Of a DNA stretch of 39,184 nt, positions 824 to 39,184 are shown piece by piece. The notes beneath the pieces are model-generated. The model searched no databases. It saw only the letters and a program-made list of their open reading frames with translations, and was not told where the DNA came from. The stretch comes from a virus. Position 1 is the first letter of the stretch; every line of letters begins with the position of its first letter. Position numbers and translations under genes: made by a program. The stretch lies in the UHGV virus genome UHGV-1367746; one strand, written 5' to 3'.

Positions 824-846
824 CTTCCCTATAGTGATAGTTAAGT
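824..846 (-). promoter_or_regulatory. Phage RNAP promoter (phiOR-like), +1 at 829
   Basis: Minus-strand sequence CTTAACTATCACTATAGGGAAGA; matches the 11-member promoter family; T7 also has a promoter after gene 19. Confidence 0.75.
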
Positions 847-3564: not shown

Positions 3565-3627
3565 AGTTGCCCTCCCGGTTTATCAGATTTCACGTAGAGT
3601 CGCCTCCACTAGTTAGTGTTAACCATA

Positions 3628-3654
3628 AAGGCCACTACATATAGTAATGACCTT
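3628..3654 (-). promoter_or_regulatory. Conserved RNA hairpin (candidate RNase III processing site, R18.5-like) between small terminase and spanin genes
   Basis: Minus-strand RNA AAGGUCAUUAC-UAUAU-GUAGUGGCCUU forms an 11-bp stem with 2 G.U pairs; member of a 4-copy family with the same stem core. Confidence 0.5.
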
Positions 3655-3665
3655 GAGTCTAACAC

Positions 3666-6209: not shown

Positions 6210-6232
6210 GTTTCCTATAGTGATAGTTTAGT
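6210..6232 (-). promoter_or_regulatory. Phage RNAP promoter (phi17-like), +1 at 6215
   Basis: Minus-strand CTAAACTATCACTATAGGAAACT upstream of tailspike gene with AAGGAGG RBS. Confidence 0.75.
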
Positions 6233-12414: not shown

Positions 12415-13002
12415 TTAGCTATGACCTGTAGGTGTGCCTTTAGCAGCACTAATAGGTGCAGAACCACCAGAGCTTGAAGTCCCGGCGATAGACTTACCAG
12501 CAGCGTATCCCTGCATCCCGGCGCTGGCAACATTAAGTGCATGAGCCAGTGGGCTGGTCTTGATGATTCTACCTTGACCACGGATAGCAGACTTTGTGTT
12601 CTCAATGTTGGCGATACGGTTCCCGAAGATAGCCGCATAATCGCGGTTGTAACTTTCGGTAATCCCTGCTCGCTCTTTGACTGTATCTCCTTCTACCTGA
12701 CGTTCAATCCTGTCCATAGAGTTACCTTCCAGTCCGGACTCAGCCACCGCAGCTCGGACCATGCCCTGATTGCGGATACCGTTGAGCGTGGTCTCTGTCA
12801 GTTCAGCCATCTGCTGCTCCTTCAGGTCTCGCTCCTGCATCTTCAGGTTGGCGTCAGAGTAGTTCATCTGCTTAACCATTTCCTGAGCCTGTCGGTTCTG
12901 AGCGTCAATTGCTGCACCTTCGGCCTTGGCCTGCTGGGATGCGGACATAGTGGCCCCGGCTACAGCCATGATACCCATGCCGATACTTACGGGTTCACAC
13001 AT
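12415..13002 (-). CDS. Internal virion protein B (gp14-like)
   Basis: 195 aa; starts MC like T7 gp14; motifs LEGSSMDRI, NYRRDY.AIF, API.AAKGT.TG; synteny. Confidence 0.85.
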   Translation of the reverse strand: MCEPVSIGMGIMAVAGATMSASQQAKAEGAAIDAQNRQAQEMVKQMNYSDANLKMQERDLKEQQMAELTETTLNGIRNQGMVRAAVAESGLEGNSMDRIERQVEGDTVKERAGITESYNRDYAAIFGNRIANIENTKSAIRGQGRIIKTSPLAHALNVASAGMQGYAAGKSIAGTSSSGGSAPISAAKGTPTGHS

Positions 13003-13486: not shown

Positions 13487-13509
13487 AGTCCCTATAGTGA
13501 TAGTTAAGG
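13487..13509 (-). promoter_or_regulatory. Phage RNAP promoter (phi13-like), +1 at 13492
   Basis: Minus-strand CCTTAACTATCACTATAGGGACT; flanked by 12-bp inverted repeat aagggcctatag / ctataggccctt. Confidence 0.75.
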
Positions 13510-17138: not shown

Positions 17139-17176
17139 AAAAAAAACCCCTCAAGCACCCGAAGGCACCCAAGGGG
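17139..17176 (-). terminator. Tphi-like terminator for phage RNAP (also intrinsic-terminator-like)
   Basis: Minus RNA CCCCUUGGGUGCC-UUCG-GGUGCUUGAGGGG followed by U8; closely resembles T7 Tphi (AACCCCTTGGGGCCTCTAAACGGGTCTTGAGGGGTTTTTTG) and sits right after the 10B stop. Confidence 0.8.
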
Positions 17177-18459: not shown

Positions 18460-18482
18460 TCTCCCTATAGTGATAGTTTAGT
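18460..18482 (-). promoter_or_regulatory. Phage RNAP promoter (phi10-like, capsid gene), +1 at 18465
   Basis: Minus-strand ACTAAACTATCACTATAGGGAGACCA; -7 to +8 identical to T7 phi10 (CACTATAGGGAGACCA); 5' leader can form a stem. Confidence 0.85.
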
Positions 18483-18483
18483 C

Positions 18484-19368
18484 CTACAGGCTTGAGGCAG
18501 CTACCTTAGCGCGAACTTCCATCGTGTACTTAGCGTCACGCAGGTATCGCGGGTCACTCATAGCCTTAATCATGTCAGACTTGGAGCTGAATGCTTCGGT
18601 CTGAGGAGCCTTAGGTGCGACCACAGGTTTAGCCTGAGTGGTGATGGTACGCTGAGGTTTAACACCCACAGCTTTACCCAGAGTCTTGCAAGCCAGATTC
18701 AGCAGAGCCTTGGTAGTCGCAATGTCCTTACGAACGATAGCAGCTTCCAGTGCTTCACGAGTTGATGGGTCGTTGGACTCAAGGTGTGACAGGATGCGAT
18801 TAAACTGTTCAGCACCACCAGCGTAGCGAACCACACCAGCAGCATACTGTTCAGCCAGAGCTTCCTGACCACGGACAAACGAATCTACGAAACGCTTGGT
18901 GTAACCTGCTTCCTGCAACTTAGCGTAGGATGCATCAGACAGCTTACCGTCCTTGGCGTATTCAGCCTTGATAGCGGTAATTTCATCAGCAGTGACCTTG
19001 CCAGCTTCTACAGCAGAAGACACCATGTCGTCGAATGCAGCTTCGTTTTCATCCAGAGCGGTGACACTTTCGGTCAGCTCTTTTGGTGCATCACCCAGTT
19101 CGATGAACTCAGGCTGCTCACCATCGGTCTCAGACTCTTCGTCATCGGACTCGTGGTCTTCTTCACCTTCAGTCTCTTCGACGTTCTCGTCTTCTTCGGT
19201 CGCCTCTTCGTTTTCGGCTTCCAGTTGCTTGAAGGTAATAGCGTCGTCGCCATCACGAACAGCTACGTCCTGTTCAAGCATAGACTTCTGGTGTTCGTTC
19301 AGGTCCTCAACGGAACCAGTGATTGCATTAGAGCTAACGCCGAACTCGGCATAAACTGATTGAGACAT
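18484..19368 (-). CDS. Capsid assembly scaffolding protein (gp9-like)
   Basis: 294 aa, acidic; similarity to T7 gp9 (VYA.FGV.S, ARDGDDAI, EIGYTKAF.DS..RGQEAL.EQY, IKAMSDPRY); synteny. Confidence 0.9.
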   Translation of the reverse strand: MSQSVYAEFGVSSNAITGSVEDLNEHQKSMLEQDVAVRDGDDAITFKQLEAENEEATEEDENVEETEGEEDHESDDEESETDGEQPEFIELGDAPKELTESVTALDENEAAFDDMVSSAVEAGKVTADEITAIKAEYAKDGKLSDASYAKLQEAGYTKRFVDSFVRGQEALAEQYAAGVVRYAGGAEQFNRILSHLESNDPSTREALEAAIVRKDIATTKALLNLACKTLGKAVGVKPQRTITTQAKPVVAPKAPQTEAFSSKSDMIKAMSDPRYLRDAKYTMEVRAKVAASSL

Positions 19369-19465: not shown

Positions 19466-19488
19466 TGTTCCTATAGTGATAGTTTAGG
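19466..19488 (-). promoter_or_regulatory. Phage RNAP promoter (phi9-like), +1 at 19471
   Basis: Minus-strand CCTAAACTATCACTATAGGAACA upstream of scaffold gene. Confidence 0.75.
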
Positions 19489-22225: not shown

Positions 22226-22286
22226 CTTGAATCTCCTCTTTAAGTTAAGACTAAAGTCTATCTTATAGTCATATCTTAGGTCCTAA

Positions 22287-22309
22287 AGTCCCTATAGTGA
22301 TAGTTTAGT
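22287..22309 (-). promoter_or_regulatory. Phage RNAP promoter (phi6.5-like), +1 at 22292
   Basis: Minus-strand CTAAACTATCACTATAGGGACTT. Confidence 0.75.
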
Positions 22310-26617: not shown

Positions 26618-28602
<1,985 letters not shown>

Positions 28603-30719: not shown

Positions 30720-30742
30720 CTGTCCTACAGTGATAGTTTAGG
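30720..30742 (-). promoter_or_regulatory. Phage RNAP promoter (phi2.5-like), +1 at 30725; single mismatch at -3
   Basis: Minus-strand CCTAAACTATCACTGTAGGACAG upstream of SSB gene. Confidence 0.6.
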
Positions 30743-31695: not shown

Positions 31696-31718
31696 TTGTC
31701 CTATAGTGATAGCTTAGG
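31696..31718 (-). promoter_or_regulatory. Phage RNAP promoter (phi1.5/1.6-like), +1 at 31701
   Basis: Minus-strand CCTAAGCTATCACTATAGGACAA. Confidence 0.7.
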
Positions 31719-31740: not shown

Positions 31741-31781
31741 TAGCTAGCTAGCACAAAGCAAAGAAACCCAGCAGTCCGAAG
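31741..31781 (-). terminator. TE-like early terminator (intrinsic) after the ligase gene
   Basis: Minus RNA CCCAGUGGUC-UUCG-GACUGCUGGG (10-bp stem, UUCG tetraloop) followed by UUUCUUUGCUUUG; location matches T7 TE after gene 1.3. Confidence 0.7.
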
Positions 31782-31801
31782 ACCACTGGGTTGACGTTTA
31801 G

Positions 31802-33381: not shown

Positions 33382-33420
33382 TTGTAGCTCCAGTTGTTTA
33401 GGTTATAGGGTTAATCATGA

Positions 33421-33445
33421 AGGCCACGACTTTAAGTCATGACCT
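33421..33445 (-). promoter_or_regulatory. Conserved RNA hairpin (candidate RNase III site, R1.1-like)
   Basis: Minus RNA AGGUCAUGAC-UUAAA-GUCGUGGCCU, 10-bp stem with 2 G.U; immediately downstream of the promoter at 33457. Confidence 0.5.
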
Positions 33446-33451
33446 TGAGTC

Positions 33452-33474
33452 TAATCCTATAGTGATAGTTTAGG
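33452..33474 (-). promoter_or_regulatory. Phage RNAP promoter (phi1.1-like), +1 at 33457
   Basis: Minus-strand CCTAAACTATCACTATAGGATTA. Confidence 0.75.
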
Positions 33475-34020: not shown

Positions 34021-36702
34021 TTAAGCGAATGCAAAGTCTGAAGACAAGATGTCCTCGATATTCAGTTTACCTTTCTTCGGAAGCTCAGGCAACTTGTCGC
34101 GCTGGCTCTCGTGAAGCTGGTATTCAAACTGCTCGTAGAAGTCAAGCAGCACATCGTTGTCGCGGTAAGTCTCTACCATCGTCTCACGGACGCCACGGAA
34201 CAGATACTCAGCGTCAGCCGGGATGGTCCCGAAGCTATCGTGAATCACTGCGAATGACATCACGCCATACTTGCGGTGAGTGTGGACTACAGTCTTTCGG
34301 AGGTGGCTACCATCTTGTGAGTGGACGAAGTTCGGGCTAATGCCTGACTCCTGCTTGTGCTTGTCCAGCTCTTTCTTCGTGCCTTTGTTGACTGTAGGCT
34401 GAAGGTTGAATGACCCTAAGAACATCAGGTTCAGACGAGTGGTATCCTTCTTGCGGTATTCCTGCCATACCGGGAACCCATCAGGTGTGACCCAGTGTAC
34501 CGGAAGACAAGGCTTCAGGATTTCTCCAGTCTTCTTGTCCTTCACCTCAGCAGCCAGCAGCTTGGCAGCACCTTGAAGCCACTTCATCGCGTCAACCGCA
34601 GCAACTACTGTCACACTCACAGCTTCCCAAATCATCTTAGCCATGAAGCGAGACGCTTGGCTTGGTTCAGTGAACATAGCGCCAGACCCTGAGTCAATCG
34701 CTGGCATCACGATGTCCTCGTATACTTGGTCTGCGAAGCCGTACTCTTTCGACCCGTAGGCCAGAGTCATGACCGAACGCTTAGTGACCTTGCGTGACAT
34801 ACCGTAGGTCAGCCACTGACGGGCCAGCTCTCGTGTCCCCAGCTTGAGACGCTCGGTAATCTCACCAGTTTTCTTGTCCTCGTGAGTTGCCATCTCGTTG
34901 TCCGTACCGTTAACCAGCAGGACTTTGAGTTCCTCCTCAATGCGGTCAGACACAATGCGATAGATGTCTTGGACCTTACCGGATGGCGTTAGGTTTACTG
35001 CATGCCCACCGATGTGGTCACGAAGCATCGCGCTGAAGTGCTGAATCCCAGAGCAGGACCCATCGAAAGCTATCGGCAGCGAGCAGGAGTAAGACAAACC
35101 GTGGTGCATTACGCCAGCATACTCGAAGCAGAACGCTAGGAAGCAGAACGGAGAGTCTAACTTACCCCACCACTCAATGCTGTCCATCGGTGCCTTAGCG
35201 GTAGCCATGATGTTGTCGTGGTTATCTTCCACCCACTTGATGCGCTCCTCGAAGGTTACTTTATCAATACCCGCACAGTTTGCACCGTGGACCTTCAGCC
35301 ATTTGAAACCATCAGCACCAATAGGCTTACCGACTGCCAGAGTCAGGAGACCCTTTTGCATGTCGTTACCCTGAGGGTTGAACATCGGCACAGCGTAGAC
35401 GCGACCGCGCCAGTCCATGTTGTACGGAAACCAGATGGCCTTGAACTGAGAGAACTTGTTCGCTTGGTTAACGATAAAGCTCAGTGACAATCTACGTGAC
35501 TGCCGGGCCTTCTCTCGGCGGTAGATACCAGCAGCAGCCTTCTTCCATGCCTTGAGTTCCTCTTCAGTCTCACCCGCATAGTCTTCAGGCTTCAGTGGCT
35601 CCATCTGAGGGATGTCATCAATAGGTGTGTTGTTCAACTTCTCGACCATGTTCACCACGTCCAGCACCTTCTTGTTCACTTTCCAAGGTGTATTCTGGAT
35701 GATATTCACAGCGTCATAGACTTCAGGCATGTATACGTCTTCATAACGTGCCACCGCTGACTTAGACCCTAAGCGAATCAGGGGCAGCGGTCTGCGACCT
35801 TTGGCCCAGTACCCACCGCCTACGACACCAGTCCACGGCTTAGGTGGAACGACGCAAGGCTGGTAGACTGGAGCGATACCCGCAAGGCTGAATCCTCGTT
35901 GTGCCATCTTCTTGACCCAGCAGTCTGACAGGTGGACCATCTCTACGTCAGCCGCTGCATTGCCAGCACCGTACCGCTTAAGCTCGACCAGTTGTGTTGA
36001 CTGGATGACAATCTCAAGCATCTTGATGCCAACGTGGACAGCCTCTGTAGGACTCCAAGTCCCCCACGCATCTTCCAGTTGGCCTTGCTCCAGCATGGAT
36101 GCCTCGACCGCTTGCATGTAGGCTTTCTTGTAGGACGCCCCGGCCCGCTTATTCAGGTTATCAGCTATCGCCTTCTTGAAGTGCTCTTTCTCCTTGTCAC
36201 GGATGCGGCCGAAGCGGATTTCGTCCTCAAGTGTGCGACCTATCGCGGAGGCCATCGGTGTAATCGGTATCCCTTCAGGCTTGACCAGCTTGGAGAGTAT
36301 GACCTTCAGTATGATAACCGCAGCAGACTCACATGAGATGCGCAGAGAGCGGTCCTTGACGGCCTTCTCTTCAGTGCTCAACATGGTGAACGCCACGCTA
36401 GGACGAGAGGTTGACAGCTTCCCGTCTGGCCCTTCATGCCACTCCCTTACGGCTTGCGCAATCTTAGGGACCAGAGTCTGCATCAAAGGCTTGGCGACCT
36501 GATTGTCTGCCAGTTCCCCGCGCTCAGTCTGGCGCTCAAGGTTCTTGATGAAACGTCGCTCGCCTTCAGTGTATGCCTCGTGCTCAAGCTGAAGCTGTTT
36601 GACTGCAAGGTCTTGCCCGTAGTGGTCAGCCAGCAGGTTAAACGGCTCAATGGCGTTCGACACATCAGAGAAGTCGTGTTTTTCAATAGAGATGACGCTC
36701 AT
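34021..36702 (-). CDS. Single-subunit DNA-directed RNA polymerase (T7 RNAP-like, gene 1)
   Basis: 893 aa; extensive identity to T7 RNAP (DFSD, PFN.LADHYG, IWFPYNMDWRGRVYAV.MFNPQGNDM.KGLLTLA.GKPIG, WLK.HGANCAG.DKV.F.ERIK..E.NH.NIMA, DSPFCFLAFCFEYAGV.HHGLSY.CSLP.AFDGSCSGIQHFSAMLRD, RSVMTLAYGSKE.GF, HDSFGT, C-terminal FAFA). Confidence 0.98.
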   Translation of the reverse strand: MSVISIEKHDFSDVSNAIEPFNLLADHYGQDLAVKQLQLEHEAYTEGERRFIKNLERQTERGELADNQVAKPLMQTLVPKIAQAVREWHEGPDGKLSTSRPSVAFTMLSTEEKAVKDRSLRISCESAAVIILKVILSKLVKPEGIPITPMASAIGRTLEDEIRFGRIRDKEKEHFKKAIADNLNKRAGASYKKAYMQAVEASMLEQGQLEDAWGTWSPTEAVHVGIKMLEIVIQSTQLVELKRYGAGNAAADVEMVHLSDCWVKKMAQRGFSLAGIAPVYQPCVVPPKPWTGVVGGGYWAKGRRPLPLIRLGSKSAVARYEDVYMPEVYDAVNIIQNTPWKVNKKVLDVVNMVEKLNNTPIDDIPQMEPLKPEDYAGETEEELKAWKKAAAGIYRREKARQSRRLSLSFIVNQANKFSQFKAIWFPYNMDWRGRVYAVPMFNPQGNDMQKGLLTLAVGKPIGADGFKWLKVHGANCAGIDKVTFEERIKWVEDNHDNIMATAKAPMDSIEWWGKLDSPFCFLAFCFEYAGVMHHGLSYSCSLPIAFDGSCSGIQHFSAMLRDHIGGHAVNLTPSGKVQDIYRIVSDRIEEELKVLLVNGTDNEMATHEDKKTGEITERLKLGTRELARQWLTYGMSRKVTKRSVMTLAYGSKEYGFADQVYEDIVMPAIDSGSGAMFTEPSQASRFMAKMIWEAVSVTVVAAVDAMKWLQGAAKLLAAEVKDKKTGEILKPCLPVHWVTPDGFPVWQEYRKKDTTRLNLMFLGSFNLQPTVNKGTKKELDKHKQESGISPNFVHSQDGSHLRKTVVHTHRKYGVMSFAVIHDSFGTIPADAEYLFRGVRETMVETYRDNDVLLDFYEQFEYQLHESQRDKLPELPKKGKLNIEDILSSDFAFA

Positions 36703-36771: not shown

Positions 36772-36794
36772 GAGTCCTATAGTGATAGTTAAGT
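36772..36794 (-). promoter_or_regulatory. Phage RNAP promoter located directly upstream of the RNAP gene, +1 at 36777
   Basis: Minus-strand ACTTAACTATCACTATAGGACTC, 75 nt upstream of gene 1 ATG; full match to family core CACTATAGG. Confidence 0.65.
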
Positions 36795-39080: not shown

Positions 39081-39184
39081 GTGTCTTATGGTTGTGACTT
39101 ATGGTTGTGACTTATGGTTGTGACTTATGGTTGTGACTTATGGTTGTGACTTATGGTTGTGACTTATGGTTGTGACTTATGGTT
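39081..39184. repeat. Tandem array of 13-mer gtgacttatggtt (7 perfect copies plus 1 variant gtgtcttatggtt) at window end (terminal repeat region)
   Basis: Direct reading 39081-39184; same unit as positions 1-52, so both genome ends carry the array. Confidence 0.9.

Follow-up and report, generated by a model that had tools for sequence, protein, structure and literature searches.

Eleven 23-bp sites on the minus strand of the viral genome UHGV-1367746 (39,184 nt; this whole stretch of DNA is referred to here as the window) almost certainly serve a K1F-like coliphage (Kayfunavirus) as promoters for the single-subunit RNA polymerase (RNAP) that its gene 1 encodes. Searching the whole window for ACTATCACTATAGG with up to two mismatches returned 11 matches, all on the minus strand, compared with a mean of 0.23 and a maximum of 2 expected by chance in dinucleotide-preserving shuffles. 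The +1 G of these matches lies at positions 829, 6215, 13492, 18465, 19471, 22292, 28374, 30725, 31701, 33457 and 36777, which recovers, at identical coordinates, all eleven minus-strand promoters that an initial annotation had listed from the sequence alone. Alignment of the 11 copies from -17 to +6 gave the consensus (A/C)CT(A/T)AACTATCACTATAGG(G/A), in agreement with the one written in that annotation. A 23-nt weight matrix was built from the same copies and used to scan both strands of the window. The 11 sites scored 30.8–37.1 bits and the next best match anywhere, on either strand, reached 15.0 bits; given this gap (31–37 versus 15 bits), the promoter family is sharply bounded at eleven members. 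The weak match, with its +1 position at 22263, was the single product of the matrix search of both strands for extra or cryptic copies, and it was rejected as a promoter because +1 is not a G and neither -7 nor -11 is a C.

Positions -12 to -8 of the 23-mers read ACTAT and positions -7 to +2 read CACTATAGG, an arrangement that is exact in 8 of the 11 copies; the other three depart by one or two bases, at -12, at -3, or at both -4 and -3. The aligned copies bear out the proposal that the ACTAT block is distinct from those of T7, T3, SP6 and K11. Every copy departs from the T7 promoter as defined by CGACT at -12 to -8 and TAATA at -17 to -13, with 7–10 mismatches to the T7 consensus from -17 to -1, and the best matches to known promoter types found in the window had at least 5 mismatches in 18 positions for T7, K11 and SP6, and at least 4 in 18 for T3. 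The T3 block had been quoted as CCCTC, which is shifted by one base; the textbook T3 consensus at -12 to -8 is ACCCT. The suggestion that the entire initiation half (-7 to +6) equals that of T7 holds for the phi10 copy, the only one in which the T7-like GGGAGA (+1 to +6) is complete, but not for the others, which from +1 have only GG(G/A) in common. T7 promoters share with these sites the same 23-bp architecture, the CACTATAGG core from -7 to +2 and an upstream-block TAA that doubles as a stop codon. They differ in having CGACT rather than ACTAT at -12 to -8 and TAATA rather than MCTWA at -17 to -13, and the T7 polymerase has R756 in place of N756.

All 11 sites lie on the coding strand, 11–185 nt before the next gene start called by an ORF finder, and each occupies an intergenic gap or extends across the stop codon of the preceding gene; at four of them, the TAA at -15 to -13 is itself that stop codon. 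The downstream genes are 1, 1.1, 1.6, 2.5, 4, 6.5, 9, 10, 13, 17 and 19.5. Read along the minus strand, the first site is the gene 1 (RNAP) promoter (ACTTAACTATCACTATAGGACTC, 36772..36794, +1 at 36777), which equals the EcoDS1 feature 2244-2266 and its K1F counterpart and is followed by a 75-nt leader, in which no unusual folding was detected (z = -0.28). Next come the promoter upstream of gene 1.1 (CCTAAACTATCACTATAGGATTA, 33452..33474, +1 at 33457), phi1.6 (CCTAAGCTATCACTATAGGACAA, 31696..31718, +1 at 31701), with G at -12, and phi2.5 (CCTAAACTATCACTGTAGGACAG, 30720..30742, +1 at 30725), with G at -3 and with the TAA at -15 to -13 forming the stop codon of the upstream ORF. The promoter upstream of gene 4 (primase/helicase; ACTAAACTATCACCTTAGGGATG, 28369..28391, +1 at 28374) has C at -4 and T at -3 and is the weakest matrix match of the 11 (30.8 bits). 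Its 11-nt leader probably reflects an over-extended gene 4 ORF, because EcoDS1 annotates the start further downstream. The remaining sites are phi6.5 (ACTAAACTATCACTATAGGGACT, 22287..22309, +1 at 22292), phi9 (CCTAAACTATCACTATAGGAACA, 19466..19488, +1 at 19471), which overlaps the gene 8 stop codon, phi10 (ACTAAACTATCACTATAGGGAGA, +1 at 18465), phi13 (CCTTAACTATCACTATAGGGACT, 13487..13509, +1 at 13492), phi17 (ACTAAACTATCACTATAGGAAAC, 6210..6232, +1 at 6215), which overlaps the gene 16 stop codon, and phiOR (ACTTAACTATCACTATAGGGAAG, 824..846, +1 at 829), downstream of gene 19. Coordinates 18460-18482 correspond to positions -17 to +6 of the phi10 copy, which stands upstream of the major capsid gene with a 108-nt leader. 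Two terminator-like hairpins were found on the same strand: one with a T-run after the ligase gene (31765..31792), matching the early terminator (TE) feature of EcoDS1, and one with a T8 run after the capsid gene (17148..17165), matching an EcoDS1 phage-RNAP terminator feature. The resulting layout, with phi1.1, 1.6, 2.5, 4, 6.5, 9, 10, 13, 17 and OR together with TE and Tphi terminators, is common to T7 and the window.

The 11 window sites map one to one, and in order, onto the 11 'regulatory/promoter phi' features of the EcoDS1 record (EU734172), which also lists three host promoters, TE and phage terminators. Two of the 23-mers differ between the two genomes by a single base, at -17 or -16, and the others are identical; the annotation of one EcoDS1 promoter feature is offset by one base. 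When K1F (NC_007456) was scanned with the window matrix, 11 strong matches were obtained in the same gene contexts; 10 of the 11 23-mers are identical to those of K1F and the eleventh, phiOR, differs only at +3 to +6 (GGGAAG here, GGAAGA in K1F). Synteny with the K1F and EcoDS1 promoters is held throughout, that is, before genes 1, 1.1, 1.6, 2.5, 4, 6.5, 9, 10, 13 and 17 and after gene 19. Across the 11 sites, conservation from -17 to +2 exceeds that of the 150-nt flanks in comparisons with K1F (100% versus 93.1%), EcoDS1 (99.5% versus 94.0%) and Ro45lw (96.7% versus 84.7%). Ro45lw has the same promoter set plus a twelfth site before gene 5. This promoter-like sequence (GCTTAACTATCACTGTAGGATAG, +1 at 12462, 25.9 bits) precedes the DNA polymerase gene, is unannotated in the Ro45lw record and is absent from the window, K1F and EcoDS1.

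The 11 repeats could instead belong to some other dispersed phage element, such as a signal for packaging, recombination or replication, which only happens to look like the T7 promoter core, a reading we regard as very improbable. Some promoters of T7-like phages also act as replication origins, so a second role is possible for some copies (phiOR, phi6.5), and a promoter-like degenerate copy is present 29 nt downstream of phi6.5. However, all 11 copies are oriented with the genes and closely precede gene starts, the family has the universal CACTATAGG initiation core, the syntenic sites were annotated as promoters by GenBank curators, and the same 21-mer drives RNAP-dependent transcription in vitro for Ro45lw, whose RNAP is 94% identical. 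Promoters of the phage RNAP, as first proposed for these sites, is the reading borne out by their gene-strand position shortly before start codons, their synteny with EcoDS1, K1F and Ro45lw promoters and a conservation above that of their flanks, and no feature of the sequence speaks against it. The sequence family, its placement, its conservation and the identity of the polymerase's specificity loop (below) are direct observations.

Judged from its sequence, the window represents the entire genome of a K1F/EcoDS1-like Kayfunavirus, in reverse orientation. The RNAP gene indicated by the initial annotation was confirmed at 34021..36702 on the minus strand by its ORF and by protein homology. It encodes a single-subunit RNAP of 893 aa that shares 99.4% protein identity with the Vec13 RNAP, 99% (884/893) with K1F gp1, 94% with the Ro45lw RNAP and 64% with T7 RNAP in a multiple alignment (62.5% by tblastn). 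At the DNA level, EcoDS1 and numerous further Kayfunavirus records match the RNAP region with 96% identity, followed by hundreds of weaker matches; elsewhere in the window, identity to other K1F-like coliphages, the nearest database records, is ~95%. The catalytic residues D537, K631, Y639, H784 and D812 are invariant in an alignment with T7, T3, K1F and EcoDS1, which identifies the protein as a T7-like single-subunit RNAP.

The specificity loop (YRKKDTTRLNLMFLGSFNLQPTVNKGTKKELD, 34363..34458, minus strand) comprises residues 749-780, corresponding to T7 739-770, and is identical to the loops of K1F and EcoDS1, including the K1F-type residues S754, N756 and V761 (T7 numbering). Comparison of the loop with T7, which had been suggested as a check on a separate specificity, revealed a difference at the residue that reads -9 (R756N), plus Q754S and I761V, with R746, N748 and Q758 retained. 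Two substitutions separate the Ro45lw loop from that of the window: M750L (T7 numbering) and, in the distal part, a T-to-S exchange. The role of the AT-rich recognition loop in T7 RNAP has been established by structural work. In the aligned counterpart of this loop (T7 93-101; GPDGKLSTSRPSV, 36394..36432, minus strand), Ser replaces both R96 and K98 of T7 and single residues are inserted at two places, changes that may go with the presence of MCTWA rather than T7 TAATA at -17 to -13. Directly after this loop, K1F-type RNAPs, including that of the window, carry an 11-residue insertion relative to T7 and T3 (STEEKAVKDRS; residues about 105-115; 36340-36390).

As 9 of the 893 RNAP residues differ from K1F gp1 and the whole genome is only about 95% identical to the nearest database records, one could suppose that the family represents a new RNAP/promoter specificity, distinct even from K1F. 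The chance of this appears very small: none of the nine differences falls in the specificity loop or the AT-rich-loop counterpart, the 23-mers are those of K1F apart from +3 to +6 of a single copy, and the motif occurs elsewhere, with the 15-mer AACTATCACTATAGG present in >100 IMG/VR stretches (for the most part belonging to ~40-kb contigs) and eight copies of CTWAACTATCACTATAGG reported in a 2026 genome note for another Kayfunavirus, phage Sparklingdew. The preferred reading is that the specificity is that of K1F itself. The nine substitutions relative to K1F gp1 are conservative, all lie outside the DNA-reading loops and leave essentially nothing relevant different, and K1F and EcoDS1 (Kayfunavirus, Autographiviridae/Studiervirinae) have eleven sites, the same gene contexts and the same specificity loop as the window.

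In T7 RNAP, the specificity loop (739-770) reads -12 to -7 via R746, N748, R756 and Q758 (cited in PMC11880802). By analogy, host RNA polymerase would first transcribe the early region, including gene 1, and the phage RNAP would then bind each 23-bp site, with its specificity loop reading -12 to -7 (ACTATC) in the major groove and its N-terminal AT-rich-loop counterpart reading -17 to -13; the TATA block at -4 to -1 would be melted and RNA would start at the +1 G. R746 and Q758, kept in the loop, would go together with the promoter C at -7 and T at -8, and the change of R756 to Asn with A for C at -9, resulting in a specificity unlike that of T7, T3, K11 or SP6. Perfect copies before genes 6.5, 9, 10, 13 and 17 would drive the late genes. 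These residue-to-base contacts (R756N with -9 etc.) are predictions extrapolated from the T7 RNAP-promoter structure. Loop context must contribute as well, because N748 is retained despite the departures from T7 at -10 and -11, and one-residue-one-base logic alone falls short of the whole specificity switch.

Activity, start site and orthogonality are attributed to the window's pair by analogy with literature on close relatives. Takatsuki et al. 2025 (PMC12272871) purified the Ro45lw RNAP, observed in vitro transcription from a minimal promoter (ACTTAACTATCACTATAGGGA) and placed the +1 of the transcript at G by deep sequencing; this minimal promoter equals the window's phiOR at 21/21 positions and phi13 at 20/21. 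With the K1F loop transplanted into T7 RNAP, Temme et al. 2012 (PMC3458549) obtained 17-fold induction from the matching promoter and found the K1F-loop variant to be orthogonal to T7, T3 and N4 variants. The K1F-loop variant of T7 RNAP is given as 754S/756N/761V with the cognate block ACTAT in Table 2 of PMC11880802, where the orthogonality of the grafted K1F-loop variant set is judged limited. A K1F-loop sigma fragment (K1FR) forms part of the split 'resource allocator' polymerase of Segall-Shapiro et al. 2014 (PMC4299498), and the whole K1F RNAP has been used with PK1F in Halomonas and E. coli for expression and mutator systems (PMC12218169, citing Zhao 2017), with little crosstalk between K1F RNAP/PK1F and the MmP1 and VP4 systems. 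The engineered pair of Temme 2012 has the same loop substitutions (754S, 756N, 761V) and the same ACTAT block as the window. It differs in that the engineered K1F-loop pair uses a T7 RNAP body, whereas the window has native sites with (A/C)CT(A/T)A and a different AT-rich-loop counterpart. In the 2012 engineered PK1F promoter, the T7 TAATA at -17 to -13 was reportedly kept.

The view that these sites and their RNAP constitute a distinct specificity pair usable for orthogonal expression is well founded in the ACTAT block, the loop difference and the published K1F pair already in use. Its implied novelty is unsupported, since the window's pair is the known K1F pair, annotated in EcoDS1 (EU734172) since 2008 and engineered as an orthogonal expression tool since 2012.

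Two of the copies, 28374 and 30725, had been described as degenerate at -4 to -3, suggesting graded strengths. This is correct for 28374, which departs at both positions, but 30725 departs at -3 only (A to G), and a third sub-consensus copy, 31701, which was absent from the earlier description, has G for A at -12. The phi1.6, phi2.5 and phi4 variants are common to all four phages (the window, K1F, EcoDS1 and Ro45lw), with one further change in the phi4 of Ro45lw, and the idea of graded promoter strengths, which is plausible, gains support from this recurrence. As to relative strengths, we infer that the sites preceding genes 1.6, 2.5 and 4 probably serve as middle-gene (class II-like) promoters of deliberately reduced strength and that phi10 is probably the strongest of the promoters. 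The suggestion runs parallel to the class II and class III promoters of T7, in which middle-gene promoters are likewise weaker than late ones.

The degenerate promoter-like 23-mer downstream of phi6.5 (CCTAAGATATGACTATAAGATAG, 22246-22268, minus strand, +1-equivalent at 22263) is conserved in position in both K1F and Ro45lw, the Ro45lw copy carrying three changes. The sequence that follows phi6.5, which includes this 23-mer, was examined for stable RNA structure of the kind expected at an R6.5-like RNase III site, and the folding score (z = 0.0) lent no support to one. It is conceivable, if rather unlikely, that the sub-consensus variants and this 23-mer together form a tuned Kayfunavirus regulatory layer. 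If so, such a layer might fix relative promoter strengths, or act through an RNAP site that serves as a decoy, pause or origin-associated element, and it would refine T7-type class II/III logic modestly without amounting to a new system.

Other repeats were observed in the window. A 49-nt direct repeat (84% identity) occurs on the minus strand at 3614-3662 and 33406-33454; one copy belongs to the leader that follows the gene 1.1 promoter, and the other separates genes 18 and 18.5. Each copy forms a long hairpin on folding (z = -2.3 and -5.0), and from their positions we take the two to resemble the RNase III processing sites R1.1 and R18.5 of T7. The 10-mer GACTCAAGGT occurs 7 times in the window, with 0.19 occurrences expected, at 3650, 18440, 33442 and 36767 on the minus strand and at 18776, 20764 and 32262 on the plus strand. 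Of the four minus-strand copies, three fall in the initial 30 nt of phage transcripts, two of them immediately downstream of the promoters of genes 1 and 1.1 and one downstream of phi10, and the 10-mer may be part of RNase III-type hairpins or a leader element. At both extremities (1-52 and 39081-39184), the window lies inside one perfect 13-nt tandem array of GTGACTTATGGTT, of which the first stretch has 4 copies and the last 8 (12 if joined); next to the array, at about 18-239, lies a single homologue of the EcoDS1/K1F terminal repeat. With its ends inside the array and the terminal repeat mapped once, the window looks like a circularised assembly that was opened inside the GTGACTTATGGTT array and holds a single terminal-repeat copy. 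Copies in the corresponding region of EcoDS1 and K1F are few, scattered and imperfect, and there are none in Ro45lw; the copy number in the window may be an assembly artefact.

Overall, the K1F-type RNAP/promoter pair is useful in synthetic biology but is already in use, and its identification here is of little importance beyond correct annotation. The window is a further natural example of a genome carrying these 11 promoters, and its small comparative value lies in the non-consensus middle-gene promoters, which recur nearly base for base across these phages.
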